This document shows positions 37,619 to 64,000 of a stretch of 64,000 nucleotides of DNA, piece after piece. This DNA comes from Promethearchaeota archaeon (GTDB taxonomy: Archaea > Asgardarchaeota > Thorarchaeia > Thorarchaeales > Thorarchaeaceae), in NCBI GenBank assembly GCA_048939765.1, contig JBHLPF010000003.1:1-64000 (forward strand), written 5' to 3'. The translations under genes were made by a program, and so were the position numbers. How positions within the stretch are numbered: the stretch's first letter is position 1; every line of letters begins with the position of its first letter. The notes below the pieces were generated by a model, which worked only from the letters and a program-made list of their open reading frames with translations, searched no databases and was not told where the DNA came from.

Positions 37619-37624
37619 TTTTAG

Positions 37625-42570: not shown

Positions 42571-42584
42571 TACGTTCCAACCTC

Positions 42585-42998
42585 CTACATTAAGAACTGG
42601 ATGTATCCCATCACAAAAACAATAGTCCAGCATGTCAGAGCAGTTAATCCTGGCCATTTCACTCTGATTCCACTTATTCCTGTTAGAAACGCGAGTACTC
42701 CAAACAAATAGCCCACCGTTCCCAGAAGAATATGGACAAAATGGAAGATGTCCAATGCTGGATTATTGAGCAGTAAGCCAATCCTCGCATCAGGTAGAAT
42801 CACAACGATGTTGATAGTAGTCAATACGAGCGATAGTCCAGCACAGACGCCGTGTGTGAATGTGTATTTCTCCTTTGAGATTTGATATAGAAGCGTACCA
42901 ATGCCCAGCAAGATAATTGCTGGTAGTCCCAATAAGATTGTCAAGTGAAAGCTTGTCCCAGCCTGTAGCGGCTCAAACCATATTTGTTGACCGACCAT
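42585..42998 (-). CDS. Four-TM membrane protein with conserved His (possible heme b anchor)
   Basis: FTHG and FHFVHILLG. Similar to the C-terminal domain of 54288-55484. Likely start is MVGQQ. Confidence 0.6.
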   Translation of the reverse strand: MVGQQIWFEPLQAGTSFHLTILLGLPAIILLGIGTLLYQISKEKYTFTHGVCAGLSLVLTTINIVVILPDARIGLLLNNPALDIFHFVHILLGTVGYLFGVLAFLTGISGIRVKWPGLTALTCWTIVFVMGYIQFLM

Positions 42999-43035
42999 TT
43001 TACCACCCTTGCAGATTTTGGGCGGACGATATGGA

Positions 43036-44772: not shown

Positions 44773-44774
44773 TC

Positions 44775-45962: not shown

Positions 45963-45968
45963 CCCTCT

Positions 45969-46466
45969 TCAGGGCCAAGGCAATCCTATCCAATCAAGTA
46001 TTGGCTCCAGAATCGATTCGTGATAAACCGCGATCCCTCCCAATGCAGCGATTATGATTATCAATACTCCAGCAACAACTAAGCCTATCCCATAAGTGAG
46101 AAAACCTGAGGTCTTGTCCCACACTCTATCGCCAAGTCTGGTTCGAAGAATAACTAGGAAGATATAGATCTCTGTTGCCACAATTGACCAGAGAATCTTG
46201 AATCTCATATAGGGGTCAATTATCAGTGCAACCATTGGCCAATCCAAGAAGCCTGTCGCCATCCCTACGAAGAGGCCGATGAGTGTTATTATGCTTCCCC
46301 AATAGATGAAGACATCAAACTCATGAAAGATCCTTGCCATTCTTGTCCCGGGGGTTCTTATGCCATCTCGAAACACTAGCCTGAATACGATATTGAGCAA
46401 TGCAATAACCGCTACAGCTGCTCCTATGCCGGTATGAAAGTGTACAAAGACTGGATGTAGTGCCAT
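45969..46466 (-). CDS. DUF2231-like four-TM membrane protein (HPxxVHF)
   Basis: N-terminal LHPVFVHF motif, ATG in TM2 and C-terminal LGGIAVY. Confidence 0.65.
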   Translation of the reverse strand: MALHPVFVHFHTGIGAAVAVIALLNIVFRLVFRDGIRTPGTRMARIFHEFDVFIYWGSIITLIGLFVGMATGFLDWPMVALIIDPYMRFKILWSIVATEIYIFLVILRTRLGDRVWDKTSGFLTYGIGLVVAGVLIIIIAALGGIAVYHESILEPILDWIGLPWP

Positions 46467-46478
46467 GATAATCACCCT

Positions 46479-47120
46479 CTAGGTTCGGGCCCTCCTCAAA
46501 ACAAACAAGCCTAAGATGGCAAGCACCACTGCCGAAGCTGGAGTTATGGTGTACATCATCAGCTCCCATATGGCAATAAGCTCCTCCTGAGATGGTGTCG
46601 TTGGAGGGGGTGTTGTTGTAGTCGGCGGTGTGCTTGTTGGGGGACTTGTTGTGGCAGTGTTCTCTGCCACATCGACATTTATGTCAACACTCCGGCCTAC
46701 TCCTCCAGTTTCAGCAGACCAAATTCTGATTACGAAGGATCCTACCGTCCGAGGTGTAAATGTGATTGACGCTTGGATCTCTCCTACGTTTCCATTTGCA
46801 TCCTCAGCATCTCCATCCCAGACTACATCGTCAGAGATTGTGAACTCCCCATTGTCAGCAACTCCGTCTTTAATGCTGATTGCGATATGTTCTGTACTAT
46901 CGCTTGCGTCTATGATGAGCAGGAATGATACTCCCCTAGTTGCTTCAATCGTCCCAGTCGCATTCGTTGAAAGTGTAGTACCCACGGTTGTATGGCATCC
47001 CGCTTGTAGAGCGCAATTAGGATTGTAATCCGGTATAGCGAAAGAACTGCTCGCCAAGATAAACACTGAGATGACCAGGGTCGCTATAACCAAGGTCATT
47101 CTGCGATGCTGCTTCTTCAT
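46479..47120 (-). CDS. Surface protein with putative single c-heme motif (CX5CH), Ig-like domain, Thr/Pro stalk and TM anchor
   Basis: Signal peptide, CALQAGCH, beta-rich domain, TTSPPTSTPPTTTTPPP and TM-RRART. Likely start is MKKQH. Confidence 0.65.
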   Translation of the reverse strand: MKKQHRRMTLVIATLVISVFILASSSFAIPDYNPNCALQAGCHTTVGTTLSTNATGTIEATRGVSFLLIIDASDSTEHIAISIKDGVADNGEFTISDDVVWDGDAEDANGNVGEIQASITFTPRTVGSFVIRIWSAETGGVGRSVDINVDVAENTATTSPPTSTPPTTTTPPPTTPSQEELIAIWELMMYTITPASAVVLAILGLFVLRRART

Positions 47121-47343
47121 CTGGTTGTCTCCATTGGTTCTGAACAAGGCTCTATATCGAGTTCGTTCGTCGTTGGCCAAGGCCATGGTTTCAATCCGGA
47201 ACCACGCAACGCCATTTTAAGCATATCGGAAGCTTACATTGTAGGTTTCGAAAGCCGCCTGTTACGTCCTGAGACTTAACTCCTATCGAGAGGTACAATA
47301 CGTAAGTAATTCGAGTATCATCCACATTTTGGCTCTACAAGAG

Positions 47344-49050
47344 TTACCGATTGAGAATCCTATCAAGAACTCTCAACAAGGGAATTCCCACGGCCAGGGC
47401 CTGATTTATCGTCATCAGCTTAATGACTAATAGACCTAACGCTCCGCCCACGAACGATAGCATCCAGATCAGTTGCACTTGAATAGCCGGGATTGGAAAC
47501 GAAAAAACAAGGTTCACAGCCCATTCGAGTCCCAGGATCTGGGGGCCAAAGTAAAGCATGACGAATGCAAGAACGAAGCCCAAACCGAAGCCAAAGACCT
47601 GCGAATGCCATGCAGTTTGGGCTCGCCCTCCAAAGACTTTCAGCGGATTCATCATATTATTGGGATCAATCTCTTTCTTCAGCTGTGACAGCTTCGCAAT
47701 CTTCTCTTCACCGTAGAACTCTTTTGAGTGTCTGGTATTCCAGAGTGCTACCGCATAGGGATGTCCTTCATACTTTCCAGCCAAAGCAGCAATGTCAAAA
47801 GATCGGTGCCACCCTATTGTGTGCCTGATTTTCTTTCTCTCATCGTCAAGAATCCACACTAGGTAGGATGCCACTCCATCAGCGCCGATAGTTCCTTCAA
47901 CGGCGAATTTCGAACTACCTAACTTGTTCAAGGTGTTTCGGTGAAGCTCAGGGAGGCGATCCACAGGAGTCGTGACCTCAGCTGGAATCAAACTAGGTCC
48001 TTGTCTCTTGAATCTCAATGGATACAATCTTTCATCCCAATAGAAGTCTGCACGCTTCTCATCCAACATTATTCCATTATTCGCACTGACGAACTTCTCG
48101 ATTGCTTCAATTCCATCATCATTATCATAGATGGTTCCATGTAGTGCTCCGGCGAGTACGAATTTATTCCATTCAGCGGGGAAGCCAATCAAGGTCACTA
48201 ATTTAGAGGTGTGATTGCTGTCAAGATATCTTAGATGATAAGGCAATGCGCCGTCTATCATGAGCTGAGCAGCTTTGGCGAGGTCCTCTATTGAGTCGAA
48301 TGAGCATGCAAATGGACGAAGTTGGAGTTTGGGAATGGTTCGAAGTGTGACCTTGGTAATAATGCCAAGAGTTCCATAGGTTTTGGAGAGTACTTCATTG
48401 AGTCTGATTTTGCCACCTGCTTTCTCAGAGAGCCAAGCAGTCCCTTCAGCTGCTTCATCCTGCAAATCATCAGACTGAGGTCCTAGGACTACTTCGCCAA
48501 CTCGGACAATTTTGCCATTAGCCAGAACTGCTTCAATTCCAACCACTTGATCACCAATCTCACCATGCTTGGCTGATCCAATGCCGAAACCCCCACTGGC
48601 TACGAAACCTCCAACTGTTGCCGCTGTTGCGCTTGACGGATAGATCGGCAAAGTGGTGCCCATTCGCTCAAGAATCATCAGCAATTCCCGCCAGGTGATT
48701 CCTGCCTCAACCGTAACCGTGCAGGCATAGTCATCAAGATGTACAATCTTATTCATCTGCGTGAGACTCACGCAAAGTCCTCTCTTGACAGGAATAGAGC
48801 CTCCCCAGCCTGATGTTCCATTTCCCCTCGGAACAATTGGCAGGTGATTCCTGCTTGCGTAGCGGAGAAGTAATTGCAGCGATTTCACTGTGACTGGTTG
48901 AGCGACTAAATCGAATTCATTCTTGATAATCTGACTGGCTAGTGCTGGCAAATTGGCTGCATCTTCAGAGTATATGCGGCAGGTTTCACTGTCTGCAGTA
49001 ATATTATCAGCTCCCACGATGTCCTCCAATTCCTGTGGCACGACCTTCAT
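47344..49050 (-). CDS. FAD-linked oxidoreductase, GlcD/Dld fold with C-terminal two-TM anchor, copy 3
   Basis: PRGNGTSGWGG, YPSSATAATVGG, YGTLGIITK and DPNNMMNP, then two TMs. Confidence 0.9.
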   Translation of the reverse strand: MKVVPQELEDIVGADNITADSETCRIYSEDAANLPALASQIIKNEFDLVAQPVTVKSLQLLLRYASRNHLPIVPRGNGTSGWGGSIPVKRGLCVSLTQMNKIVHLDDYACTVTVEAGITWRELLMILERMGTTLPIYPSSATAATVGGFVASGGFGIGSAKHGEIGDQVVGIEAVLANGKIVRVGEVVLGPQSDDLQDEAAEGTAWLSEKAGGKIRLNEVLSKTYGTLGIITKVTLRTIPKLQLRPFACSFDSIEDLAKAAQLMIDGALPYHLRYLDSNHTSKLVTLIGFPAEWNKFVLAGALHGTIYDNDDGIEAIEKFVSANNGIMLDEKRADFYWDERLYPLRFKRQGPSLIPAEVTTPVDRLPELHRNTLNKLGSSKFAVEGTIGADGVASYLVWILDDERKKIRHTIGWHRSFDIAALAGKYEGHPYAVALWNTRHSKEFYGEEKIAKLSQLKKEIDPNNMMNPLKVFGGRAQTAWHSQVFGFGLGFVLAFVMLYFGPQILGLEWAVNLVFSFPIPAIQVQLIWMLSFVGGALGLLVIKLMTINQALAVGIPLLRVLDRILNR

Positions 49051-49052
49051 TG

Positions 49053-50249
49053 CTACTCGCCTCCTTTCTCATACCCCGAACGCAATGAATTTGCCACCAG
49101 CTGTGTAATGTCTAGAATTTGAATGCTATAACCTAGGGTAATTGTTGCTAGATCGAATGCCATTTCACATCTGGGGCATTCTGTCACAAGTAGCGATGCT
49201 GGAGTGACGGATGCATCCCTCAATCGCATCTCCGCAATCTGTGCGGACAAGTGTGGATCAATCATATTCAGAAGGGCATGCGATCCGCAACATCTGGTGT
49301 CTTCCTCAGAAGGGACCATTTCGACTCGATAGATTCCAGGAATCCTCTCTATCACGTTCCTAGGTTCTTTTGAAACACCGAGGACCCTAGCTGAAATGCA
49401 AGGATCGTGATAGGTGGCAGTAATCATAGGCTGCTCTTCGAAAGAAAGACGCCCTTTCTCGATGAGCTGGTTAAGGAACTGTGAAGCAGTTAGGAGCTCC
49501 ATCTTTCTCACAGCTGAAGTTCCTGAGCTCTTATGCATCGAACTAATCCAGGTGCTAGCACACGATGGACAACTAAACACTACTTTCCTTACGCCGAGAT
49601 CAGCAAGGGCTTGCGCATTCTTCTCAACCATGGTTGGAGTTCCTTCGGGTTCTCCAGCCCAAAGCAGAGGAGCTCCACAACATGATTCGTTCTCTCCGAG
49701 AAGAGTATATTCGACTCCTGCATGTTCCATGATTCTTATCATCGACTTGGCTACGGCATGGAGCTGGTGCTTCAGTGATACATTACATCCAAGAAAGTAT
49801 GCGACATCTGCTTTTGCATTGATTCTCGGCTCAACAATGTCCTCAATGCCCTCTGCCCACAGCATTCTGTTGGATTTGCCTATGGAAAATGGGTCGCCAG
49901 TTTTCTTGATTGACTCGCTGGCAAACTTGACTGGTGGTGGAGTAAGGTCTCTTTCTTTTGCCTCCTCGCGCATTAGTTCCCAGAACCTATCGAGCCTGAT
50001 ACTAGTTGTACAGACAGTCGTGCAATGTTCGCACAGTGTGCAGAGGAAGAGCTTCCTCGTAAAATCTGGATTGAACTCGGCTTCCTTTTCTAAAATCGAT
50101 TTTGTAATGCTTAGTTTTCCTCTAGGGCCGTATGGTTCCCATCTCATCTGGCGAAACACTGGACATACGAGTGTGCAATTACCACAAGATGCACAGACGT
50201 ACGGGTCGTTCTTCTGCCCGCTTTGTTCAATCGGCCCAGCTCTAGTCAT
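49053..50249 (-). CDS. HdrD/GlpC-type Fe-S oxidoreductase, copy 3
   Basis: CASCGNCTLVCP, CTLCEHCTTVC, CCG...CPSC and HDPC...CCGSH...CPRC. Start uncertain (ORF track extends to 50333). Confidence 0.9.
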   Translation of the reverse strand: MTRAGPIEQSGQKNDPYVCASCGNCTLVCPVFRQMRWEPYGPRGKLSITKSILEKEAEFNPDFTRKLFLCTLCEHCTTVCTTSIRLDRFWELMREEAKERDLTPPPVKFASESIKKTGDPFSIGKSNRMLWAEGIEDIVEPRINAKADVAYFLGCNVSLKHQLHAVAKSMIRIMEHAGVEYTLLGENESCCGAPLLWAGEPEGTPTMVEKNAQALADLGVRKVVFSCPSCASTWISSMHKSSGTSAVRKMELLTASQFLNQLIEKGRLSFEEQPMITATYHDPCISARVLGVSKEPRNVIERIPGIYRVEMVPSEEDTRCCGSHALLNMIDPHLSAQIAEMRLRDASVTPASLLVTECPRCEMAFDLATITLGYSIQILDITQLVANSLRSGYEKGGE

Positions 50250-50351
50250 TCCAAAGGAATGTCCATTATCTCGCCTTAAGACTGTTAGGCTAGGTTCAAA
50301 AATGAAAGGACACCGGAGCACACATACAGGCACTCCGGATTGTCTATAAAA

Positions 50352-51683
50352 CTAGGACAGGTCCTGAATCATCTCGCCAGCGCAGGCAATTCCGGACCTA
50401 GAAGCCGCTTCCATGCTGGCATAGTATATTCCACAGTTGGCAAATGACCCAGCAACATAGAGTCCTTCGACCCCGGTCCTATTCGTCTTGAGTCGGTCCT
50501 CCAAGATGCCAGGGGGCTGAGAAAGGACTGACCGCCAAATCTTCCAGCTCTTCTTCCAGGTGACCTTCTCTTCGACCCCAGGGATGAGTTCTTTGAGTTC
50601 ACTGAGGATTTCATCGGTCGCTTCCTCATCACTCATCTTCAGCAGTTCTTTATCGATACTGGTGACAGTCAATAGTGATTCGCCAATAGGAGCGAGGACT
50701 CCAGAGACCCGTTTCGCCTCAGCTACAATGTTGATCTTCCTGCCAGGTACAAAGGCACCAACATTGAAGTCAAGCACACGAGATGAAAGGCCGAAGTAGG
50801 CTACGGTTGATGGAGCATAAGTGAATTTACCAACAGCCTTGCCAAAATCGGCCGGTAGCTTGTTCATGTTCACAAGATTCGGAAGAAGGTCTATTGGTGT
50901 GGTCACCACGACTGCATCGGTATCAACGTGCTGATCCTTGCCATCTTGCTCGTAGTCGACTCCTTGAACCTTGCCGTCCTCAATAATGATTTGCTTGACC
51001 GTGGAGTTCACCTTTGGTTCTACCGCAAAGTTGCGTGCTTGAAGCATGAGCGTGTATGGGACACTCCCCAGTCCTCCTCGCTCAGGATACATCGCCTTGA
51101 ATCCATCCTCATATGCGAACCTCTGCTTCTCAGAGTATAGATACTGACCAGCAGAAACCTCGTCCGGAGTCATAAAGGTCACAGTTCTTATCAGTGGATC
51201 ATAGAAGTCCTCTTGGATGGACTCAGCTATGCCCTTTTCATCTGCATATTGAGAAAAGGTCATCTTATCTAGTTCAAGGAATTCTTCGTCAGGTCTGTTC
51301 ATACTCTCTTGGACAAGCAAACCCAGACGTGCCCTATCAGCAACAGGCAATAATCCGAACTTGGCGAGGTCCACCGCAGACTTGCGGACAATGTGTCTGT
51401 CTCCGCTCTTGAGCCAGACAGCTCCCTCTCCAACCGTGGTCATTCTGATTCCACTTCGTTCGAGAATTGGAATCAGTGATTTGAAACCACCAACAAAGAA
51501 GTGGAGGCCCTGATCAAACACGTAGCCAGATTCGGTGAAGGATCTGGCTCGTCCGCCCACAGTCTTCTCTTTCTCTAGGATTGTACATCGCGCCTTAAGC
51601 CCCTTAAGCTCCAGAGCACAGCTGAATCCAGCAATGCCCGCGCCTACAACCACAACCCTTGTCCCCTTTCTTGATTCGCTCAT
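50352..51683 (-). CDS. FAD-dependent oxidoreductase, amine oxidase/phytoene desaturase (HpnE-like) family
   Basis: GAGIAG, E....GGRARS, DQGLH and GLYVAG...ASMEAASRSG. Confidence 0.82.
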   Translation of the reverse strand: MSESRKGTRVVVVGAGIAGFSCALELKGLKARCTILEKEKTVGGRARSFTESGYVFDQGLHFFVGGFKSLIPILERSGIRMTTVGEGAVWLKSGDRHIVRKSAVDLAKFGLLPVADRARLGLLVQESMNRPDEEFLELDKMTFSQYADEKGIAESIQEDFYDPLIRTVTFMTPDEVSAGQYLYSEKQRFAYEDGFKAMYPERGGLGSVPYTLMLQARNFAVEPKVNSTVKQIIIEDGKVQGVDYEQDGKDQHVDTDAVVVTTPIDLLPNLVNMNKLPADFGKAVGKFTYAPSTVAYFGLSSRVLDFNVGAFVPGRKINIVAEAKRVSGVLAPIGESLLTVTSIDKELLKMSDEEATDEILSELKELIPGVEEKVTWKKSWKIWRSVLSQPPGILEDRLKTNRTGVEGLYVAGSFANCGIYYASMEAASRSGIACAGEMIQDLS

Positions 51684-51690
51684 TTGGTTC

Positions 51691-52815
51691 TCACTCCTCT
51701 ACAAGAGATGACTGTGCAAGATCCAAGATTAACTCGTCTAGCTGAATTACTTCCAAGTCTGTTTCACGTGCACAGTAGCTCAAGTTCTTATAACATGATA
51801 TGCATGTAGTAATCATTCCATCGACACCTAGCTCAACGGCTTCATTAACCCTTCTCTTCCCAACATCTTCAGACAATTGCGGGTCTAGGACCGTGAGGAA
51901 TCCGCCACAGCAATTTGCGTTCTCTTTATTATTAAGCAGCTCTACGAACTCTAGATTCGGAATTGCTCTGATGATCTCTCTTGGTTGCTCATATATGCCA
52001 AGTGCCCTTCCAAGATGACAGCTGTCATGAAATGTATAGCTTCCTTCTTTCCCCTTGAAAGTCAAGACACCATTTCGCACCATATTTGAAAGAACATCGA
52101 CAGTATGGTGTATCTGAACATCGAATTCCGGAATGACTTGCGCATAGTGTTCAGCTAGTGTTCCATAGCATCCTCCACAGCCTGTAACGATATGTTGGAT
52201 GCCTGCTTTCTTGAACATCTCATAGTTCTCGCGAGCTATTTTCTCAAAGCCAGCATCGTCACCAGCCCAGTATGACATGAGACCGCAGCAGACCTCACTG
52301 GGAACATACCCTGCGTCGACCTTCAGTTTCTGCAACATATCTACAACCATCTCAGGTTGATCTGGAAACCAGAAGCTACCCATACAACCACTGAAGATGG
52401 CTGTATTGGATTTCTCGGGCAATTCCAAGTCTTCAGCCCAGATGGTTCGGTCATCGGATTCGTATCCTATGAATGGCGTTCCTTCCTTGTCAAGCCAATC
52501 AATGACTTTCACGAGACTCTCTGACATTTCTCCTCCAGTCTTGAGGAGATTGGCCTTAGCTTCATGCCATATGTGAGTCACAGGCACTCCAGCTGGACAA
52601 ATAGCTTCGCACCTTCTGCAATCAGCGCAATATAGCCTCTGCAGCAATTCCTGAGGGGGATTTCTCATTTTTTCTCTATATGCCCTAAGTGCTCTGATCT
52701 TTCCTCCCGGACTGTCGAGTTCAGAGCCCAACTCAATATACATTGGGCATGTATCGCGACAATAGTTGCAGGACCCACAGTGGCGCATAGTTTCCTTGTC
52801 TATGTCAACTCTCAT
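51691..52815 (-). CDS. HdrD/GlpC-type Fe-S oxidoreductase, copy 4
   Basis: CGSCNYCRDTCP, CADCRRCEAICP, CCG...CGGC and HDSCHLGR...CCGG...CISC. Confidence 0.92.
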   Translation of the reverse strand: MRVDIDKETMRHCGSCNYCRDTCPMYIELGSELDSPGGKIRALRAYREKMRNPPQELLQRLYCADCRRCEAICPAGVPVTHIWHEAKANLLKTGGEMSESLVKVIDWLDKEGTPFIGYESDDRTIWAEDLELPEKSNTAIFSGCMGSFWFPDQPEMVVDMLQKLKVDAGYVPSEVCCGLMSYWAGDDAGFEKIARENYEMFKKAGIQHIVTGCGGCYGTLAEHYAQVIPEFDVQIHHTVDVLSNMVRNGVLTFKGKEGSYTFHDSCHLGRALGIYEQPREIIRAIPNLEFVELLNNKENANCCGGFLTVLDPQLSEDVGKRRVNEAVELGVDGMITTCISCYKNLSYCARETDLEVIQLDELILDLAQSSLVEE

Positions 52816-52827
52816 TGTCTTCTCACC

Positions 52828-54288
52828 TCATCTCCCCACATATCTTGATAGGCGCCTTATTCCAGCGGCCATTAGGAACAACACATTCATCCTGAAGTAT
52901 GACGTCATGCATGAGGTCACACGGTCTGGATTCATTATATTGCTCCGATCCCACTTTTCTTTTGCTGCCTTCATTAATTCTAATCTCTCTGGATATGCAC
53001 GCTTCATATAGATTGAATTCTGAAGGCCAATCGTGTAAGGCCCACCGCCAAGCGAAATAGCCTTCTTCACCATTTTATGCAATATGCCTTTGCTGCTTAT
53101 GAACTTGAGATACTGGTCGGGATTCAGCATTGCCATCAATTCAGCTCTAACCTTTCCTTGACTTCCGAGCATTGCGAACCAGATTGCAGGCACCTTGTGT
53201 GATTTCTTGTAGGACTCATACCTGTTGAGTAGGTCATAGAGCTTGTCTACCTCAAGTGAAACCTCCTGAAACATCAAGGTGTCACAGTGCTCCTTGGGGT
53301 TGAACTCGCTGTCATAACGTAGACTCCAATCATGAGCTGCATATTCAACACCAAGTTCCATTCCTCCATTGTCTGCAATTGTCCTCTTGAGTTCATCTAT
53401 TGGGACACTTTCCGGCTGATTGGGATAGACCGCTGTCAGGACATAATTGCCCTTCTCTAGTGGATTGCTGTAGCTCTGGAAGTCCTTGTCTGCAATCTTG
53501 AGATGGATCGGTTTCTGATCAATAGCAGCAATTTGCCGCATTGCATTGCACACATGCTCCAGGTGGTCAAATCCGTAGCTGAACGGAATGAAATCATCGG
53601 GCTTATCATGGATTCTCATTTTCACCTCTGTGATGACTCCAAGTATGCCATAAGACCCAAAGAATAGTCCTATCTCATCGCCACTGATTGTGACCAATTC
53701 GCCATCAGCATTCACGACCGTCAATTCAAGGATATTCTCGATCAGAGCTCCGTAGTAGGGAGTGCCAATGCCTGCTGTACCCCCGCATCCGATCCATCCA
53801 GCGATTACAGCTGATTTAGCGCTAGTTGGATAAATGCCAATGGTCTTCCCTTGTTTTGCGAGCTCAACATCGAGTCTGTCGAAGGGAACCCCTGGTTCAA
53901 GTCTGACATAGCCTTCATCTGTATTGATTTCAAGGATGGCATCCATCCGCTTGATGTCAAGAGATATCCCGCCGCGTGTTGGGCTCGATGACCCCAGGCA
54001 ACTTGATGCACCGCCTCTTGGGATGACGGGAATACCGTGAGCAGCCGCAGTTGTAACAACTTCCCTCACCTCATCCACATTCTCGACTCGTACAACATAG
54101 TCGACCAGATACTTCCCTTTCCAGCGGTAGTGGAATTGTGGGAGGGCTGCAGGATCGCCGCTATACACTATCCTCTCCAACAGCATGTTCGAAACTCGAT
54201 CCGGACTTACGGCTGCTGCAAGGTCTCGCATGACTTGGTCATCATATTTTGGAGTCTGGGTTTCCACTTGTTCTTCAGTCATAATCAT
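52828..54288 (-). CDS. FAD-linked oxidoreductase, GlcD/Dld fold, copy 4
   Basis: IPRGGAS, YPTSAKSAVIAGW, GSYGILGVIT and IMNPDR. Likely start MIMTEEQ overlaps the upstream stop. Confidence 0.9.
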   Translation of the reverse strand: MIMTEEQVETQTPKYDDQVMRDLAAAVSPDRVSNMLLERIVYSGDPAALPQFHYRWKGKYLVDYVVRVENVDEVREVVTTAAAHGIPVIPRGGASSCLGSSSPTRGGISLDIKRMDAILEINTDEGYVRLEPGVPFDRLDVELAKQGKTIGIYPTSAKSAVIAGWIGCGGTAGIGTPYYGALIENILELTVVNADGELVTISGDEIGLFFGSYGILGVITEVKMRIHDKPDDFIPFSYGFDHLEHVCNAMRQIAAIDQKPIHLKIADKDFQSYSNPLEKGNYVLTAVYPNQPESVPIDELKRTIADNGGMELGVEYAAHDWSLRYDSEFNPKEHCDTLMFQEVSLEVDKLYDLLNRYESYKKSHKVPAIWFAMLGSQGKVRAELMAMLNPDQYLKFISSKGILHKMVKKAISLGGGPYTIGLQNSIYMKRAYPERLELMKAAKEKWDRSNIMNPDRVTSCMTSYFRMNVLFLMAAGIRRLSRYVGR

Positions 54289-55484
54289 CACATCAAGAAT
54301 CCAACCGCATTGAGATAGAATCCTGTCAGCCCGAGTACTGTCCACATCAATACTGTAGGTAGGCCGAGATTGCATGTTTTCCACCCAGCGATATGGGTGA
54401 TGAGCGCTAGTGTTCCGAGTATCATGCTTAGTATTCCAACCCAGATATGCCAAGAGTGAATGAATAGCATCAGCTCAGCTGGGTTGATAAGATAGGATGG
54501 GTTCAAAGCAGTCCAAGCTCCAGGGTCTTCCTGAAATAGCCAAAGCACGTTGATTAATGTGAGGAAGTAGGCTATTGTTAGCATATACCCGTGAAATCTG
54601 GTGAATCTCTCTTCATCATAGTATTCGAGTGCTGTGCCAAGATACGCTAGTATCAATGCTGGAGCACCCAAATAGAACCCATAGTGCAACTTCGGTAGCG
54701 GAATGGCCTGCACTGTGTATTGTAAGGGCGGATCAGTGAATACTTCTATTCCACCTACATCCCTCGCGACTATCCGAAACTCTACTGTAGTGCCAGCCGG
54801 ATATCTTGGAATAGTTGCCTGATAGTATCCACCAACTTGTGTCATTGTAATGTTGGTCCACTCAGTAGTTGTGTTTGCCCTATGTTGTAGCACTGCTGAA
54901 ACAATACCTGCTTCCGAGCTTACATTCGCCGACACAAGTACACTCTCATTATCGAACGGAGACGTTGGCTCAATAGTGAAGTCTGCTATCGATGGTCCTT
55001 CTCCCACATGAATCACATTCACAATGATTGTAGTTCCTACCGCATAGCCACCGTTACCTGCAGCCCATATCTCAAGGGTATATGAGCCCGCTATCGCAGG
55101 CGCAGTCAATGTATAGTTGACTTCCATCTCCAGAGGGTCTGAATCAAGGTCACCTGCTAAGTTATCACGAACCAATCCATCACTGGGAATATTGAAGAGG
55201 GCATTGCTCTCCAAATTCAAGGGGAACTTGATGACTAGCGTAGTTGGCCCTGATGTTGCTGAAGCAGTGACAATAAACGAGAATTCCGCTCCTTCTTCAA
55301 CATCTACCGAAGTGTCCGTGCTTACTGTCATTCCAGTCGCAGTAGTATGACATCCCGTATTATCGCAGGCTCCCTGTTGAGTCACATAGGCAACAGTAGC
55401 TTGAGACGCTATGACGAGGGCTATGGCAGCAGCTAACACAACAATAATGGCATATCTTGATTTCCGCTTCACATCTGTCACCAT
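54288..55484 (-). CDS. Putative monoheme (CX4CH) surface domain + Ig-like domains fused to a His-bearing four-TM domain
   Basis: Signal/TM, CDNTGCH, two beta-rich domains, then TMs with RFHG and HSWHIW. Confidence 0.65.
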   Translation of the reverse strand: MVTDVKRKSRYAIIVVLAAAIALVIASQATVAYVTQQGACDNTGCHTTATGMTVSTDTSVDVEEGAEFSFIVTASATSGPTTLVIKFPLNLESNALFNIPSDGLVRDNLAGDLDSDPLEMEVNYTLTAPAIAGSYTLEIWAAGNGGYAVGTTIIVNVIHVGEGPSIADFTIEPTSPFDNESVLVSANVSSEAGIVSAVLQHRANTTTEWTNITMTQVGGYYQATIPRYPAGTTVEFRIVARDVGGIEVFTDPPLQYTVQAIPLPKLHYGFYLGAPALILAYLGTALEYYDEERFTRFHGYMLTIAYFLTLINVLWLFQEDPGAWTALNPSYLINPAELMLFIHSWHIWVGILSMILGTLALITHIAGWKTCNLGLPTVLMWTVLGLTGFYLNAVGFLM

Positions 55485-57474: not shown

Positions 57475-58716
57475 CTACTCATAGATCTCCTCTAACCCAT
57501 CCCACTCCAAGCCTAATGCCTCAGCCATTAGAACTGCAAGGTCCTTAACTACCTTACTCGATCCTGCTTGAGGCAGTTGATCATGCATGAAGTCAACACA
57601 TGAAGGGCAAGATGCAGCAACTACTGAAGCACTTGTCTGTTCAATATCGTCCACTTTCAACTTGCTGATCCGGTTGGCAAACTCGGCGTCAATAGCTCGT
57701 AGCACACCGCCCGACCCGCAGCAGAAACAGTTGCTCTTGTTATGCGGCAGCTCCTCGAAAGTCACCCCAGGCAGGTACTCCAAGACCTTTCTAGGCTGTT
57801 CATAGAAACCTGAGTTCCTTCCCGCGTCGCAGCCGTCATGAAATGTCACAGTAATGTCTAGAGGATTGGTGAATTCCAACTTGTTGGCATCAATAAGCTC
57901 CTCAAAATACTCCGGTCCGTAGATGATTTCGAATGGCGGGTCAATGCCAAGGAACTCGTGATATTCATGGGCCCACATCTTATAGCAGCCCGGGCAATTT
58001 GTCATAACTCGTTCCACCCCGAGTTCCTTGTATTTCTCAATATTATGCTCAGCAAATTGACGAGCGGTCTCGAAGTCGCCTGTCATGATCATAGGCGCTC
58101 CACAACAGACTTCATCTTCACCAAGAAATGTGTACGACTCGCCAGCTTTGTCCATGATCAGAGTGGTGGCAATTGTTGCCTGAATGGAGACTCCACGGAA
58201 TGAGGAGGCACACCCGAAGAAGAATGCAGTCTTTGCCTCTTGGCCCATTGTATCTAAAAGGGCGTCTTCATCTGGATGCCAATACGACCATCCCTCGACT
58301 CTATCCATCTGTGACTGTCCCTGAATGTTCTGGCTGTCAAGTAGGGTCTTCTTTGCCATCTCAAGTTGCTCAGGCCAGAGACCCATCTTCTGGAAGTCTG
58401 ACCTCATCAGTTGGTAAATCTGAACAAAAGGAATGTCCACCTGGCAAATCTCTTCGCATCCTCCACAGAGAGTACATCCGAAAACCGCGTCGCGAAGACC
58501 CTCTAGACCTTCCGACGCCTTCAGGCTTCCCTGGGCCAATGAACGGGCAATGATCATCTTCCCTTTTCCTGAGTAGCTATCTCGGCGCTTCACCTTGTAG
58601 GTCGGACAGGCGCCATGGCCAACTTGGCAGAAGCTACATTGCGCACAAGTATATGGCATATCTTGAAGGTTATGCTTCTTCAGTGATGGGAATTCCATGA
58701 TGTCATTCACAACCAT
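57475..58716 (-). CDS. HdrD/GlpC-type Fe-S oxidoreductase, copy 5
   Basis: CAQCSFCQVGHGACP, CTLCGGCEEIC, CCG...CPGC and HDGC..GR...CCGSGG...CPSC. Start uncertain (58698-58764). Confidence 0.92.
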   Translation of the reverse strand: MVVNDIMEFPSLKKHNLQDMPYTCAQCSFCQVGHGACPTYKVKRRDSYSGKGKMIIARSLAQGSLKASEGLEGLRDAVFGCTLCGGCEEICQVDIPFVQIYQLMRSDFQKMGLWPEQLEMAKKTLLDSQNIQGQSQMDRVEGWSYWHPDEDALLDTMGQEAKTAFFFGCASSFRGVSIQATIATTLIMDKAGESYTFLGEDEVCCGAPMIMTGDFETARQFAEHNIEKYKELGVERVMTNCPGCYKMWAHEYHEFLGIDPPFEIIYGPEYFEELIDANKLEFTNPLDITVTFHDGCDAGRNSGFYEQPRKVLEYLPGVTFEELPHNKSNCFCCGSGGVLRAIDAEFANRISKLKVDDIEQTSASVVAASCPSCVDFMHDQLPQAGSSKVVKDLAVLMAEALGLEWDGLEEIYE

Positions 58717-58920
58717 CGGGACACGTGGCTCGACATGTTTTGCCGAACGAGTTATGCCCTGCAACAGCCCTTAATATCTGTGCTCGTTGCACAATGGCAT
58801 AGCTTTCGTCACACTTTAAAACTTGTTAGGTAAGTTGTGTCAAACGCCATTCCCTCCCTCTCTCGCTAGGTTTTTATGGAGCATGATTCCACGACCGTGA
58901 CCTGAGAGCAGCTTCATCTC

Positions 58921-60876
58921 TTGGAGAGAGTCCACATGACACTGAAGCCAAAGCTAGTGACGGAACTCGCTGAGGTCTATGAAGACCGAGTGATCACAGA
59001 GAAGCATGAGCTCGTCATCCATGGCATGGATGTTGGTTCTTTGCCCAAACAAGTGGGCTGGTTAATGAACGTCAAGCCTGATGCGATTGTGCAGCCTCAA
59101 ACCCCTGAAGAGATCAGGTTCCTGTACGAGTTTGCAAACAAGTACAAGGTTCCTCTAATACCAAGGGGGGCAGGCACTTCGGGCTATGGTGGTGCAATTC
59201 CTCGAAAGGGAGGCATCATTGTTGACATGCGTGTTATGGACAAGATCGTTGACATCGATGAAGAGAATCTGACTGTCACTGTTGAGCCCGGACTCTCATG
59301 GGCGAATCTGCAATTTGAGCTGAACCGAAAGAACCTAGACCTCCGTTGTTATCCCTCTTCTGGACTCTCTGCAACAATCGGGGGCTGGGTGGCCCAGGGC
59401 GGCGATGGAATTGGGTCTCTCAAGTATGGGAACATCAACAAGAACGTGGTTGCTTTCGAGGTGGTCTTGCCAACTGGAAAGATGATCAAGAGCAAGGACT
59501 GTGACCTGTTCTGTGACACAGAGGGCATTCTTGGAATCATCACTAAGGTGACTCTGAAGATAAAGCCCTTCACTCCTATCAAGGTCATTGTTTCGAGCTT
59601 CCCTGAGAATTATCTGATGGTTCATGCTATAGAGAAGATACTCGAAGATGGTCCTCTTCCATTCACGATAAAGTTCGAAGAAGCAAAGTACACAGACCTG
59701 AAGAAGAAGATCTGGGACAGTGAGGAGAAGTTCCCATTCCCGGTTCATCACTGCACGATTATGGTTGCATATGACGGAGATGAGGAGGAGATTGCAGAGG
59801 GCTTCAGAGTTGTAGAAGAAGTCACAAAGATGTACAAGGGAACTGTTTATGATGAGCATGTGTCTACCCACGAATGGAGTGACCGCTTCTACCCAATGAG
59901 AGTCAAGAAAGCTGGTCCTACCCTCGTTGTTGGCCAAGCATTTGCACCGCTTGAGAACCTAACCGCAATACTTGATGACTGGCAATTTGAACAGGGATCC
60001 GCTAAAGCTGGTATTGATGGCTACGTAAACTCTTTGAATGCTGTCACCATGATGGGCTATTTCCTCGAAGATGAACGGCGCAGATTCTTCATGTTATCCT
60101 GGGCTCAGAGCTTTGTTGTGTTCAAGATTGCACAGCGGCATGGCGGTCATGCTCACTCGACAGGAATCTGGTTCGCCAACCTGGCCGGTCAATACTTTGG
60201 TGCACAGCGACTGGCAAAGATACGTGCAGCCAAGCTTAAGTACGACAAGAAGGAGATATCAAATCCTGGGAAGGTGTTCGCCTATTGGCTACCACTTATT
60301 CTCAAGTTTGGTAAGTATTTCCTCTGGATATTCTATGACCTATTCAGGAATGGGTTTGGCAGGATTGCTCCAATACTTCTGAAGTGGCTCCAGAACCTGC
60401 CGCCACTCAAGTGGGTGCTGCGATGGGGCCGAGCACATAGTCCATGGCCAGTGCAATACGGATTAGGATGTTGCATGGTCGATGGTGCCGCTGGAATCGC
60501 GTCGAGGTGGGACTTTGAACGATTCGGGATGCTCCCCCTCTTTGGCCCGCGGCAGTGTGATGTGCTATGGATATCTGGGTCTCTTACCAAGAAGATGGCT
60601 CCGCGACTGCGAAGAGTCTACGAGATGATGCCAGATCCCAAGTTCGTTATCGCCTTCGGACAGTGCGCGGCCAGTGGCGGCGTCTTTTGGGACGGATACT
60701 CGCTACAGGTTCCGCCTGAGTCTGTAGTACCTGTCGACGTCTATTTGCCCGGGTGTCCTCCGAAGCCTTCAGACTTCGTCAGGGCTCATCTGATACTCCA
60801 GAACAAGATTCGTGCAGGCACGACACACTGGCAAATGAAGTATGAAAACCAGGACGCAATGGGGATGATCCAATGA
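58921..60876 (+). CDS. Fusion protein: GlcD/Dld-fold FAD oxidoreductase (copy 5) + NuoB/FpoB-like [4Fe-4S] complex I subunit
   Basis: N-terminal part has PRGAGTSGYGG, YPSSGLSATIGGW, EGILGIITK and NPGK. C-terminal part has WGRAHSPWP..GLGCC, DFERFG, PRQCD, KMAPRLRRVYEMMPDPKFVIAFGQCAASGG and VPVDVYLPGCPP. Likely ATG start at 58936. Confidence 0.92.
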   Translation: MERVHMTLKPKLVTELAEVYEDRVITEKHELVIHGMDVGSLPKQVGWLMNVKPDAIVQPQTPEEIRFLYEFANKYKVPLIPRGAGTSGYGGAIPRKGGIIVDMRVMDKIVDIDEENLTVTVEPGLSWANLQFELNRKNLDLRCYPSSGLSATIGGWVAQGGDGIGSLKYGNINKNVVAFEVVLPTGKMIKSKDCDLFCDTEGILGIITKVTLKIKPFTPIKVIVSSFPENYLMVHAIEKILEDGPLPFTIKFEEAKYTDLKKKIWDSEEKFPFPVHHCTIMVAYDGDEEEIAEGFRVVEEVTKMYKGTVYDEHVSTHEWSDRFYPMRVKKAGPTLVVGQAFAPLENLTAILDDWQFEQGSAKAGIDGYVNSLNAVTMMGYFLEDERRRFFMLSWAQSFVVFKIAQRHGGHAHSTGIWFANLAGQYFGAQRLAKIRAAKLKYDKKEISNPGKVFAYWLPLILKFGKYFLWIFYDLFRNGFGRIAPILLKWLQNLPPLKWVLRWGRAHSPWPVQYGLGCCMVDGAAGIASRWDFERFGMLPLFGPRQCDVLWISGSLTKKMAPRLRRVYEMMPDPKFVIAFGQCAASGGVFWDGYSLQVPPESVVPVDVYLPGCPPKPSDFVRAHLILQNKIRAGTTHWQMKYENQDAMGMIQ

Positions 60877-61418
60877 AATTGCGAGAAGACAGCGATCAGT
60901 ACTGCATGCTGCTGATCGGCACAATCATCCTAAGTGCCTATGTCTTTGACATCTTGCTGGCTGTTGTCGCTGATACAGCGATGGCTCTTCACTTTCCGTT
61001 CCTGGTCGGTGGGCCTCTGATCATGGTGTTCTTTCTAATTGGCTACTTCAGGCCAAAGCGCGGCAGGATCAAGGTCAATATGCTCTCTATTGCAATTGTG
61101 ATAGGTGTTCTCTACACAATCTATGTCTTGGTACCATTTGGCGGTGATATCATCTATGCGTCCTGGGGAATGGGAGGCGCAATCCTCCTGGCTGGCGGTT
61201 TCTCAATGTTGGACCCGATGGAGGTCAGTGTGACCCCCGGAATCATGGAGGTCAGCGACTTCAAGTACAAGCCCTTGCCAGAGCCTGAGCCCGAGCCAGA
61301 ACCCGAGGAGGCGGCTGAGGCTGAATCAGAAACGGAAGCCGCCCCTGACACCTCAACTTCAGAAGAGCCAGCTCAAACGGAATCAACTGAAACTACTGAT
61401 GAAACTCCATCAGAATAG
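60873..61418 (+). CDS. Four-TM membrane protein with acidic Glu/Pro-rich tail
   Basis: ATGA overlap with the fusion gene, four hydrophobic segments and an EPEPEPEPE tail. Confidence 0.7.
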   Translation: MKLREDSDQYCMLLIGTIILSAYVFDILLAVVADTAMALHFPFLVGGPLIMVFFLIGYFRPKRGRIKVNMLSIAIVIGVLYTIYVLVPFGGDIIYASWGMGGAILLAGGFSMLDPMEVSVTPGIMEVSDFKYKPLPEPEPEPEPEEAAEAESETEAAPDTSTSEEPAQTESTETTDETPSE

Positions 61419-61513: not shown

Positions 61514-61873
61514 TCATTCACGAAGCCAAGCAAACGCAGCAAACGCCAGGAGCAAACCGAAGGCAACCCATGCAAAGAGGAGAATACCTGCTAGGTCAGT
61601 GTACTGGGTGATGTCCAAATATGCGTGCACACCACCAAAGACTCCAGCAGCCATCGTGGCACCTATGCGGCCACTGCGGGTTGATGCGAATGCAATACCA
61701 AGAGTCGCTACTACGAAGAACAGCCCACTCAAGAAGATGAAGTATTGGAAGGTGAGATCAATCGGTGCTACAGTCAAGATGATCCAGAAGTATGCCCCAA
61801 TGAATCCCATTCCGATTAGAAGCGCGAGGTAATAGAAGAATGTACCCTCTTCTTTGTAAGACAATTGTATCAC
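61514..61873 (-). CDS. Small four-TM hypothetical membrane protein
   Basis: Hydrophobic 119-aa ORF with a GGVH motif. TATA-like TTTAA upstream. Confidence 0.6.
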   Translation of the reverse strand: MIQLSYKEEGTFFYYLALLIGMGFIGAYFWIILTVAPIDLTFQYFIFLSGLFFVVATLGIAFASTRSGRIGATMAAGVFGGVHAYLDITQYTDLAGILLFAWVAFGLLLAFAAFAWLRE

Positions 61874-62206: not shown

Positions 62207-62665
62207 TTGCAGACAGATAGGCTGTTTCTCCAATTCATCCCGGTCTTGGTTTGGGCTATTCTTGTAATCGTTCTGATTGTTATCATGCTGTTGGCATCCT
62301 GGGTGCTGCGACCCCATATACTCCAGAACTCAGAGAAGACTTCTACATACGAATGTGGAGAAGAGCCTATTGGGCCAGCACGAATGTCATTCCCCTATAG
62401 CTACATCATCTACACGATTCTCTTTGTCATCATAGACGTAATGGGCGCATTTCTCTGGCTACTTACTGTTTCACCGCTACGATTGAATCCCATAGTCGCT
62501 TGGCAGACGTTCATCTTCGTCGTGATTATTATGGGTGCAATTGGATATGCGCTGAGGTATCTGCCTCAGACTTCGTTTAATGGTAAGGAAATCCTCGAGG
62601 CATATCGCGCTGCAAAGGCAAAGCGTCTCGAGAAAGCGCACGCATCGGGGAGGGAGCATCATTGA
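62207..62665 (+). CDS. nuoA: Complex I-like subunit A (NuoA/FpoA)
   Basis: Three TMs, EKTSTYECGEEPIG loop and LFVIIDV. TTG start after GGAGGG. Confidence 0.92.
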   Translation: MQTDRLFLQFIPVLVWAILVIVLIVIMLLASWVLRPHILQNSEKTSTYECGEEPIGPARMSFPYSYIIYTILFVIIDVMGAFLWLLTVSPLRLNPIVAWQTFIFVVIIMGAIGYALRYLPQTSFNGKEILEAYRAAKAKRLEKAHASGREHH

Positions 62666-63333
62666 TGCAAGGATTTGAGTCCGCGTTCGAGTCAGTTGAG
62701 TTTCTGTTGATTGCAGGAATAGTCATTGTACTGGCTTACCTCGCACTGGAACATAGGGAGATTGTGTATGCCGCATTCTTTTTTGGCTTCATGGCGTCGT
62801 TCGTAGCTGGATTCTTCCTTCTATTGGAAGCGCCTTTTGTTGCCGGTATGCAGATTGCGGTGTACACTGGAGGCATAAGTGCGTTAATCATATTCGGCGT
62901 TCTCCTGTTGCCACGAGCACAAGACTCCACACTCGAGGCAATAGAGTCGCCCCACGCCAAGAAAGTTGGCATACTTGTATCCGGCTCCATAATGTTCCTC
63001 TCTGCAATTCTTGCACTGACGTTCCCATGGAACGAAACGATTCCAGAGAGCACAATCGATTCTTCAAACAACGTGGCTCTTCTCGCTGAGTGGTTGTGGG
63101 GAGATCATGGAATCTATGTTCAACTCATCGCACTCATCATTGTGACATCCCTCGTAGGTGTCATCGCGCTCATGAAGATGGATAAGGCAGAGCTGATGAA
63201 AGATGTCGTCGCCGAGTTCGGTATCGAAGCAGCACCAGAACCTGAAGCGCCTGAGCCGGAAGAACCTCCGGAGCCTGAGGAGACCTCTGAGGAAGCTTCT
63301 GAGTCGGAAGTCAGTGAGGAGGTGGCCGACTAA
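62662..63333 (+). CDS. nuoJ: Complex I-like subunit J (NuoJ/FpoJ) with acidic tail
   Basis: IVYAAFF, LLLEAPFVAGMQIAVYTGGI, five TMs, and it precedes nuoK. Confidence 0.85.
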   Translation: MMQGFESAFESVEFLLIAGIVIVLAYLALEHREIVYAAFFFGFMASFVAGFFLLLEAPFVAGMQIAVYTGGISALIIFGVLLLPRAQDSTLEAIESPHAKKVGILVSGSIMFLSAILALTFPWNETIPESTIDSSNNVALLAEWLWGDHGIYVQLIALIIVTSLVGVIALMKMDKAELMKDVVAEFGIEAAPEPEAPEPEEPPEPEETSEEASESEVSEEVAD

Positions 63334-63653
63334 TGGTCCCGCTTTCTTGGTATCTTGCTGTTGCATTCATCTTGATAGGCCTTGGTGCCTATGGGATGAT
63401 GGTGAAGAGGAACCTCATCAGAATTCTCATTGGTGCTGAAATCATGGGGAATGGAGTCAGCATCGCTATAGCTGCTTTTGCAGTCTACAGCCCTACCTTT
63501 ACGCTGACAGGACAGGCTCTCATTATTCTCTTGATATCAGTTGCTGCAGCTCACACTGCTCTAGCTCTAGTCTTGATGCTTGCTTACAACAGGCGACATG
63601 GAACAGTGGATCTTGGAAGACCAATCTCACAGGAGGAGAAGCTGGATGTCTGA
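63333..63653 (+). CDS. nuoK: Complex I-like subunit K (NuoK/FpoK)
   Basis: GAYGMMVKRNLIRILIGAEIM, GQAL and VAAAH...YNRRHGTVD. Confidence 0.9.
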   Translation: MVPLSWYLAVAFILIGLGAYGMMVKRNLIRILIGAEIMGNGVSIAIAAFAVYSPTFTLTGQALIILLISVAAAHTALALVLMLAYNRRHGTVDLGRPISQEEKLDV

Positions 63654-64000
63654 AGGTACTCCTATGTCTGCAGCCACATTTGGAAGACAGATTGTCAACA
63701 AGTTTCCTGGCGTTGAATGTACGCCAAAGGAAGATGGTATCCTTGAGTGCATTGTGCCAGCAGACAGGATTAGGGACGTTGTCGGGATGATTGACGAACA
63801 GATAGAAGATGCCTTTCCAGAGAGCGTCTTTGGAGTTGACCTTCAGGAAGACAAGTATGAAGTCATCTACATATTCTGGTCTCGAACCAATAGGACACTG
63901 TATCACCTTCGTGTTTCACTTGAGGGCACCAATCCCGAGGTGGACACAGTGTGTGACATATTCCCCGGCATGGAGTGGCATGAGAGAGAGACCTGGGAGA
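63646..64000 (+). CDS. nuoC: Complex I-like subunit C (NuoC/FpoC), 3' truncated by window edge; not in the ORF track
   Basis: Hand translation from ATG 63646 (after AGGAGG) gives MSEGTP...GVDLQEDKYEVIY...LRV...VDTVCDIFPGMEWHERETWE, containing the NuoC WxERE motif. Confidence 0.88.
   Translation, partial: MSEGTPMSAATFGRQIVNKFPGVECTPKEDGILECIVPADRIRDVVGMIDEQIEDAFPESVFGVDLQEDKYEVIYIFWSRTNRTLYHLRVSLEGTNPEVDTVCDIFPGMEWHERETWE

Follow-up and report, generated by a model that had tools for sequence, protein, structure and literature searches.

A flavoprotein–NuoB fusion in a head-less complex I-like pump of Thorarchaeaceae

The window analyzed here is a 64,000-nucleotide stretch of DNA from a Promethearchaeota archaeon of the family Thorarchaeaceae and constitutes the first 64 kb of a 110-kb contig (JBHLPF010000003.1) in a 3.37-Mb genome that is 88.5% complete. 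Near the downstream end of the window, one gene on the forward strand joins a flavin adenine dinucleotide (FAD)-binding flavoprotein in frame to a complete NuoB subunit. The fusion supplies the only NuoB of a complex I-like pump that is head-less and has four antiporter-like subunits. The fusion gene, its parts and a divergently oriented iron–sulfur (Fe–S) protein gene are arranged as follows.

57475..58764, − strand: HdrD/GlpC/TfrB-like Fe–S protein with a 2x[4Fe-4S] domain and two CCG domains, divergent from the fusion gene
58936..60876, + strand: FAD-flavoprotein::NuoB fusion gene; the frame opens at TTG 58921, and ATG 58936 is the ortholog start
58936..60273, + strand: flavoprotein part (FAD_binding_4 and FAD-oxidase_C) ending in NPGK, delimited by Pfam, PDB alignments and Foldseek
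60274..60375, + strand: linker, read as the flavoprotein tail (residues 452-485); aromatic, amphipathic and predicted to be helical
60376..60876, + strand: complete NuoB (residues 486-651) with LLKWLQN..LKWVLRWGR as its own N-terminal helix

The fusion is contained in a single stop-free open frame (58921-60876, + strand) of 651 codons counted from TTG 58921. Translation likely starts at ATG 58936 and would yield a 646-residue protein; the orthologs also comprise 646 residues, and their alignment begins at this ATG. Pfam profiles match FAD_binding_4 at residues 53-190 (2.5e-38), FAD-oxidase_C at residues 221-452 (7e-7) and Oxidored_q6 at residues 531-622 (6e-24). These matches bear out an earlier note on this DNA, prepared from the letters of the window and their open reading frames (ORFs), which had described a joint FAD/FAD-oxidase-C and NuoB ORF. 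The motif positions that it gave are correct (NPGK, 60262-60273; CC, 60469-60474; GQCA, 60658-60669; PGCPP, 60748-60762), and the linker is indeed free of a stop codon and of an in-frame ATG, with no Met between residues 391 and 519.

The NuoB half (residues 486-651) passes the NCBIfam NuoB models NF005012 (168.6 bits; cut-off 116) and TIGR01957 (160.8; cut-off 142.7). Its best alignments are with cyanobacterial NdhK (1.4e-40) and T. thermophilus Nqo6 (4e-40), and it aligns more weakly with the hydrogenase-type small subunits MbsJ (5e-29), MbhJ (3e-26) and HycG (3e-22). The ligands of the N2 cluster are provided by the tandem CC of the GCCM motif (60469-60474), the GQCA Cys residue (60664-60666) and the PGCPP Cys residue (60754-60756). 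All four Cys residues align with those of T. thermophilus Nqo6 and cyanobacterial NdhK, as the earlier note had concluded from the motifs. The alignment with the NuoB/Nqo6/NdhK/PSST subunits extends end to end, but the described NuoB proteins have no N-terminal flavoenzyme.

The fusion gene is followed by two genes for small membrane proteins and by a nuo operon that continues beyond the window.

60873..61418, + strand: conserved membrane protein of 181 residues with 3 hydrophobic segments (simple hydropathy scan) and an acidic PE-rich tail
61514..61873, − strand: conserved membrane protein of 119 residues with 3-4 hydrophobic segments, two of them overlapping
62207..62665, + strand: nuoA (Pfam Oxidored_q4)
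62662..63333, + strand: nuoJ (Pfam Oxidored_q3)
63333..63653, + strand: nuoK (Pfam Oxidored_q2)
63580..64000, + strand: nuoC, extending past the window end

The nuoA, nuoJ, nuoK and nuoC genes (from 62207, 62662, 63333 and 63580) come without a separate nuoB, as stated in the earlier note, and the contig past position 64000 fits the same picture. It carries nuoD, nuoH and nuoI and then, until ~73757, four Proton_antipo_M subunits of 513, 774, 530 and 492 residues. No second nuoB follows nuoA or occurs elsewhere in the operon, and nuoEFG was not found in the operon, its portion past the window included. The start codon of the 181-residue membrane protein overlaps the fusion stop codon (ATGA), and the protein matched no known family in Pfam or NCBIfam. 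A + strand ORF at 61494-61832, which overlaps the gene of the 119-residue protein and is less conserved, is probably not a gene. A Ras/Roc-family small GTPase gene, typical of Asgard genomes, lies directly after the last antiporter gene (contig ~73963-74637, − strand).

Neither this genome, at its 88.5% completeness, nor any of five near-complete relatives yielded a spare NuoB. The genome's two remaining Oxidored_q6 genes adjoin NiFeSe_Hases large subunits and HdrA/MvhD-type genes and are therefore small subunits of group 3 hydrogenases. In four of the five relatives, a second match near the NuoB cut-off reads SGSCNGCD and adjoins a large subunit with RICGICS. This candidate second NuoB was rejected as the small subunit of a true group 4 [NiFe] hydrogenase (CNGC, RICGICS). 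The group 4 cluster of the relatives (G315:C8:48600-52800) consists of the small subunit, a NuoC-like protein, the RICGICS large subunit, and NuoH- and NuoI-like proteins; it is absent from the PF00346 matches of the present genome, which gave only the nuoD of the operon.

The closest solved match of NuoD is MbsL of the Pyrococcus sulfane reductase (3.6e-59, compared with ~1e-51 for the 49-kDa subunits of complex I). NuoD retains GPQHVSAHG (GPQH..HG) but lacks the RxCxxC/DPCxxC nickel Cys residues of group 4 [NiFe] hydrogenases (MERLCMLE and DPYPGWWDR). The quinone Tyr is replaced by Met (MERLCMLE; the RLDY position reads RLCM). These features are conserved across three genera. With the NuoEFG module not in the operon and the quinone Tyr lost, the pump differs from complex I proper. 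Compared with Pyrococcus MBS/MBX (6u8y), NuoD resembles MbsL in having neither the full set of NiFe Cys residues nor the quinone Tyr, with the first Cys kept, whereas the NuoB part is nearer to complex I than to MbsJ (1e-40 versus 5e-29) and the membrane arm is complex I-like, with nuoA/J/K/H and a long NuoL. A long NuoL (774 residues here) and a set of four antiporter-like subunits are also features of the 2M-type complex I with its additional NuoM (Chadwick et al. 2018, cited via PMC9040806); the likeness does not imply membership of that lineage, whose enzymes are bacterial and have a normal NuoB.

Across 400 Asgard species genomes, in which a full-length single-frame match was scored as the fusion, ~55 carry it, and all of them belong to one family (genera g1-g12 of Thorarchaeaceae). 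The fusion-bearing pump is thus found in 12 of the 16 Thorarchaeaceae genera sampled. More than 45 protein clusters from NCBI, JGI, ENA and Logan exhibit the three-domain architecture at 71-95% identity and are named only 'NuoB'. Among 1.84 billion 50%-identity representatives, the full-length fusion occurs in just one cluster. The fusion likely arose once. It also appears to travel together with the nuo operon. An ortholog of NuoD (72-82% identical) is present in all five further genomes of the fused clade that were tested, and only a NuoD paralog with 31-34% identity was found in genera g13-g16 (five genomes, one or two per genus, of which one is 90% and the others 94-99% complete).

The earlier note had made the fusion depend on its occurrence in relatives, and the shared architecture in ~55 genomes establishes that it is real. 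An artefact of assembly or annotation, whether a chimeric join or a missed stop or frameshift, is extremely improbable, because the same frame recurs in independent assemblies of these species, including single-contig genomes, and in the >45 protein clusters of several sources. The sole observation that could speak for an artefact comes from genome G334 (G334:C5:93241-95186), where the fusion gene is split into two overlapping frames; this break, near residue 440, lies inside the FAD domain and not at the junction. It likely reflects a sequencing indel or a recent pseudogene, because the genus-mates are intact.

The junction between the two halves, as judged from the alignments, is made of the flavoprotein's own tail (residues 452-485) joined directly to NuoB's own N-terminus. 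Past NPGK, every unfused member of the flavoprotein subfamily has a tail of amphipathic or hydrophobic character, and in other Asgard lineages free NuoB (59-61% identical) begins with a helix that can be aligned to residues 484-500 of the fusion. Helices are predicted in the linker at residues 456-477 and 479-491, and its hydrophobicity is below that needed for a transmembrane helix. In the two closest paralogs within the window (43036-44772, 34% identity; 47344-49050), a strongly hydrophobic C-terminal stretch takes the place of NuoB. A comparison of 13 orthologs, at nearly saturated synonymous sites (pS ~0.8), gave pN/pS values of 0.16 (flavoprotein), 0.11 (linker) and 0.07-0.09 (NuoB). The linker is thus under strong purifying selection, as an element selected at the protein level and not a floppy spacer.

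Unfused orthologs of 498-499 residues (56% identical) occur in genus g14 and end in ...KWMLYDFPPLKWI, which matches the start of the NuoB helix. At the g14 locus (G386:C3:112500-129500), the gene order is prenyl synthase, MenA, CCG and FAD, and the genome yielded no ortholog of the nuo operon. The g14 orthologs were considered as a pre-fusion ancestor, a reading rejected because a remnant of the N-terminal NuoB helix is still present at their C-terminus; they are probably truncated descendants of a fused ancestor that underwent secondary loss of NuoB. Genome G003 from another Asgard family, which has nuoB as a free gene (59% identical) at a distance of ~5 kb from a FAD/CCG pair, was likewise rejected as a pre-fusion state, as its FAD protein is non-orthologous and exhibits 37% identity over the FAD-binding domain only.

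The flavoprotein part is modeled by AlphaFold2 with a predicted local distance difference test (pLDDT) value of ~90. By sequence and fold, it is nearest to mouse D-lactate dehydrogenase, LctD and alkyl-DHAP synthase, and Foldseek aligns it with the mouse enzyme at an E-value of 2.4e-32 and a TMt of 0.85. The His/His/Glu metal site of D-2-hydroxyacid dehydrogenases (GHxGDGNxH, GEHG) is missing, and the aligned positions read GYVNSLNAV and HAHSTG. The loss is common to all of the subfamily relatives aligned, which instead share the motifs EW.ERFYPMR.KK.GP(S/T)L and DER (in the fusion gene, RFYPMR..GPTL from 59884 and DER from 60070). Neither the GlcD equivalog model (TIGR00387, 127.7; cut-off 567.9) nor the YdiJ equivalog model (NF049975, 67 bits; cut-off 1350; match confined to the FAD-binding domain) is passed. 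From these sequence features, the FAD part is assigned to a metal-free GlcD/D-lactate dehydrogenase-like subfamily and is not a plain GlcD/Dld. The GlcD/Dld fold proposed in the earlier note is thus supported by Pfam and Foldseek, but a plain GlcD/Dld identity is not, and given the missing metal site and the low GlcD score, its designation 'organic-substrate dehydrogenase' is only a guess.

Several relatives of the two halves exhibit other architectures. In the 867-residue protein P0054 from Hydrothermarchaeota, the only NrfD carrier, an NrfD/PsrC membrane anchor is joined to a flavoprotein of the same subfamily (38-40% identity). Relatives of 880-935 residues were rejected as NrfD+FAD fusions and proved to be tandem FAD_binding_4 proteins. 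The 533-residue protein P0210 has two Oxidored_q6 stretches, suggesting a tandem NuoB.

The divergently encoded CCG protein matches Fer4_8 (1e-9) and, in two stretches, CCG (1.9e-30). Its gene is conserved beside the fusion in genomes G320, G336 and G317. The protein scores below the cut-offs of all equivalog models, with 167 for TfrB (cut-off 385), 124 for LdhH (800) and 98 for GlpC (278). A complex of fusion residues 1-500 with the CCG protein was predicted with a score of 0.87, whereas the best control reached 0.00; in calibration, 58 of 80 solved complexes and 2 of 110 mismatched pairs attained the 0.87 mark. The prediction runs agree by at least 96%, and the pLDDT value of the partner is at least 87. 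The score may owe part of its height to likeness with solved flavoprotein/Fe–S complexes, which is likeness and not binding. In the predicted interface, the RFYPMR..GPTL and DER motifs face the ferredoxin (Fer4) domain, which would explain why these motifs define the subfamily, and the linker lies outside the interface. The predicted arrangement implies the order FAD, 2x[4Fe-4S] and CCG site. Natural single-chain FAD+Fer4+CCG proteins with 35-40% identity provide independent support for the FAD–CCG pairing. The divergent HdrD-type protein proposed as a partner in the earlier note is thus very probably the partner, as judged from the predicted complex and these natural fusions. The flavoprotein–NuoB tie is covalent, and the flavoprotein–CCG contact is a predicted one. 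Downstream of the CCG gene and in the same direction, two PNPOx-like (FMN- or F420-type split-barrel) proteins are encoded at 55629-57371 (− strand); one is fused to DUF7530, and the larger one is kept at the same place in G320 (66% identity).

The region upstream of the fusion contains further candidate electron-transport genes, including a MenA-like gene.

26727-28196: multihaem cytochrome c (c554/c552-like), upstream of the FAD/CCG pairs
37625..38656, − strand: polyprenyl synthetase, adjoining MenA (neighbour gene annotation)
38802..39866, + strand: MenA-like 1,4-dihydroxy-2-naphthoate prenyltransferase (TIGR00751, 108.4; cut-off 102.15)
39877..54453, − strand: four paralogous FAD/CCG pairs (FAD genes at 41095, 43036, 47344 and 52828; CCG genes at 39877, 44775, 49053 and 51691)

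The block at 26727-39866 also holds CcmF-, CcmC-, CcmB- and CcmA-like genes, an FMN reductase and a geranylgeranyl reductase; taken with the nuo operon, it resembles a complete island for membrane electron transport. In at least 22 genomes, MenA and the fusion are located no more than 5 kb apart on one contig, and in G315, G317, G318, G321, G324, G335, G336, G337 and G363, only the CCG gene stands between MenA and the fusion. Of all the evidence, this linkage most strongly suggests that the working partner of the module is a prenylated quinone. A MenG/UbiE match above the cut-off is also present in the genome.

The window contains five FAD/CCG pairs when the fusion and its CCG partner are included. 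The four paralogous pairs fall into two subtypes, and the subtype I flavoproteins (43036 and 47344) end in strongly hydrophobic stretches. Interspersed among the pairs are an amine-oxidase-like flavoprotein (50352-51683) and several membrane proteins that could be assigned to no family (42585-43079, 45969-46475 and 54288-55511). In several relatives, matches to paralogous FAD genes occur in very long frames of 900-990 residues with a single TAG (for example, G320:C1:1510363-1511865, G381:C131 and G372:C271), which may simply represent neighboring genes in one frame or read-through.

In solved complex I structures, NuoB sits on NuoH at the membrane interface, the N2 cluster is buried between NuoB, NuoD and NuoH, and the known input modules dock at the distal end of the chain (NuoI, NuoC or NuoG). 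In the reading that we favor, to which we give slightly less than an even chance, the FAD/Fe–S/CCG module would be parked at the membrane foot of the pump, beside NuoB, NuoD and NuoH, and would be coupled to the pump through quinone with no direct wire. Electrons would run from a substrate site at the FAD through two [4Fe-4S] clusters to the CCG site. The module and the pump would exchange electrons via a carrier of the menaquinone type, for whose synthesis the linked MenA and prenyl synthase would be responsible and which the module would reduce or oxidize at the mouth of the quinone chamber of the pump, and the NuoI end of the pump would deal with ferredoxin. The net flow could run either way, as ferredoxin-driven pumping or as ferredoxin reduction from a mid-potential substrate driven by the proton-motive force. 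The FAD–CCG contact in this scheme is predicted by modeling; we infer the membrane placement, the quinone go-between and the direction of flow. The membrane placement is suggested by the strongly hydrophobic C-terminal stretches that the closest paralogs have in place of NuoB, by the amphipathic, helical linker and by the NrfD+FAD fusion of another phylum (P0054), and the tight linkage of MenA points to coupling through quinone rather than through a hard wire.

Several observations weigh against a quinone-coupled module at the membrane foot. Gene linkage cannot prove an electron path. In the genome, at its 88.5% completeness, MqnA/D had no match, MenB and MenD were represented only by paralogs below the cut-off, and neither the futalosine nor the classical pathway to the naphthoquinone ring was found above the cut-off. 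The site within the pump itself may differ from a normal quinone site, because NuoD lacks the Tyr and best matches MbsL. The top equivalog score of the CCG partner, although below the cut-off, is with the thiol:fumarate reductase TfrB and fits a disulfide acceptor equally well. In the AlphaFold2 model of the whole fusion, the NuoB part has pLDDT values of only 25-55, too low for the model to give a flavin-to-N2 distance or a position of the flavin domain on the complex. One NuoF-like gene and two FrhB/FpoF-like genes are found, unlinked, on other contigs.

A direct wire without quinone, in which the HdrD-like CCG protein exchanges electrons with N2, is possible but rather unlikely. The enzyme would then be an energy-converting ferredoxin:heterodisulfide (or organic acceptor) oxidoreductase in which the flavoprotein serves as a second point of entry or exit, that is, the published Fpo–HdrD(–GlcD) idea made covalent; complexes of this kind feature in proposals for Methanomassiliicoccales (PMC7374477) as well as Bathyarchaeia, Methanomethylicia and Korarchaeia (PMC10667645, PMC6783470). 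The fusion partner is the N2 subunit itself, the linker is highly conserved, the quinone Tyr is lost in NuoD, the best scores of the CCG partner are with TfrB and HdrD-type proteins, and the HdrA/Mvh-type genes of the genome suggest a thiol cofactor pair. These points are countered by the predicted module, in which the Fer4 domain faces the flavin and the linker stays outside the interface, and by the buried position of N2, which an outside Fe–S protein could hardly approach with NuoD and NuoH intact. The tight linkage of MenA to the fusion and the g14 descendant, which does without the complex, also argue against a direct wire. A pump that works without free quinone by exchange between N2 and the HdrD-like CCG clusters would form a new complex I class, an ion-translocating ferredoxin:(heterodisulfide/organic substrate) oxidoreductase, a claim that we consider unlikely.

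The earlier note had instead proposed that an organic-substrate dehydrogenase replaces NuoEFG/FpoF and drives pumping with quinone as the acceptor. The operon without nuoEFG or fpoF and the D-lactate dehydrogenase fold with an adjacent Fe–S partner are consistent with such substrate-driven input, but the metal triad is missing, the GlcD equivalog score is far short (128 versus a cut-off of 568), and the fusion is located at the N2 end and not at the NuoI/NuoC/NuoG docking sites. Electron transfer from lactate/pyruvate (~-190 mV) to menaquinone (~-75 mV) yields ~22 kJ per electron pair, which is too little for four antiporter-like subunits. Head-less relatives are, moreover, thought to work with ferredoxin (PMC9723677; bioRxiv 10.1101/2024.07.04.601786). 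We therefore regard substrate-driven input as very improbable. The role as an input module proposed in the earlier note is disfavored by the position at the bottom of the Fe–S chain, the lost NuoD Tyr, the energetics of a lactate-level donor and the nuo-less g14 descendant. Its hard-wired input to the pump holds for the covalent tie to NuoB, but an electronic hard wire is disfavored by the MenA linkage.

The fusion could also serve anchoring only, with an independent FAD/CCG enzyme for which NuoB is a mere anchor or assembly partner. [quoted passage not shown] GLDH is a VAO/FAD_binding_4-family flavoenzyme physically on complex I, present as a chain of the complex I entry (7a24_z) and listed as an assembly factor (PMC7447434), but it is not fused to a subunit. 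The strongly hydrophobic C-terminal stretches that replace NuoB in the paralogs and the g14 form that functions without the complex agree with anchoring. The retention of the fusion as the sole NuoB in ~55 genomes, the very conserved linker and the joint gain or loss of the module and the operon do not, and the N2 subunit of an ion pump would hardly be needed for a plain anchor. Anchoring only is accordingly judged quite improbable, and the quinone-coupled module at the membrane foot is retained as the tentative preference.

No description of a flavoprotein–NuoB fusion was found in the literature searched, as the earlier note had supposed, but the underlying idea has a precedent in the 'Fpo-associated HdrD/GlcD' unit proposed for Bathyarchaeia, Methanomethylicia and Korarchaeia (PMC10667645, PMC6783470). 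An Fpo-like complex with HdrD has likewise been assumed to act as a ferredoxin:heterodisulfide oxidoreductase in Methanomassiliicoccales (PMC7374477). Both the proposed unit and the present system combine a head-less pump, an HdrD-like CCG protein and a GlcD-like flavoprotein that are thought to cooperate. In the former, these are separate proteins associated by gene content only, whereas here the flavoprotein and NuoB are covalently joined and MenA is linked; the present organism is also a Thor archaeon without a methyl-CoM reductase context, and its flavoprotein is devoid of the metal site of D-lactate dehydrogenase. In a published survey of fusions in archaea, NuoB-C and NuoB-C-D are listed but flavoprotein–NuoB is not (PMC11237513), and the Asgard complex I-like enzymes described so far are of the hydrogenase type or have a free NuoB (PMC11291895; bioRxiv 10.1101/2024.07.04.601786). 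Sifarchaeia and Jordarchaeia have multi-copy Dld/HdrD pairs, a head-less complex I and menaquinone genes (PMC9723677), and the present genome shares with them the same two-part FAD/CCG module in many copies in addition to the head-less complex I and candidate menaquinone genes. Such Dld/HdrD pairs and the proteins annotated as 'FAD-binding and (Fe-S)-binding domain-containing protein' are, however, free or fused to each other, and none is joined to complex I.

Head-less relatives of complex I are common among anaerobic archaea, and for most of them the partners are a matter of guesswork. The 'Fpo-HdrD-GlcD' association has been assumed for years in metabolic models without physical evidence. 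What was known already is this association as a hypothesis; what is new, as read from the sequence, is a complex I relative with a covalently attached FAD/Fe–S module. The conservation of the GlcD-like::NuoB fusion in 12 carrier genera represents Rosetta-stone evidence that such modules sit on the pump. If electron transfer between N2 and the CCG protein were true, it would be the first physical proof of the long-hypothesized Fpo–HdrD–GlcD complex, and, run in reverse, it would enable a fermenting Asgard archaeon to raise mid-potential electrons to the ferredoxin level by spending membrane potential. In part of Thorarchaeaceae, MenA, ccm genes, a multihaem cytochrome, five FAD/CCG modules and a four-antiporter pump occur together. 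Thor archaea are usually drawn as simple fermenters or acetogens, and this island bears on the models of Asgard energy metabolism that are used for the origin of eukaryotes.

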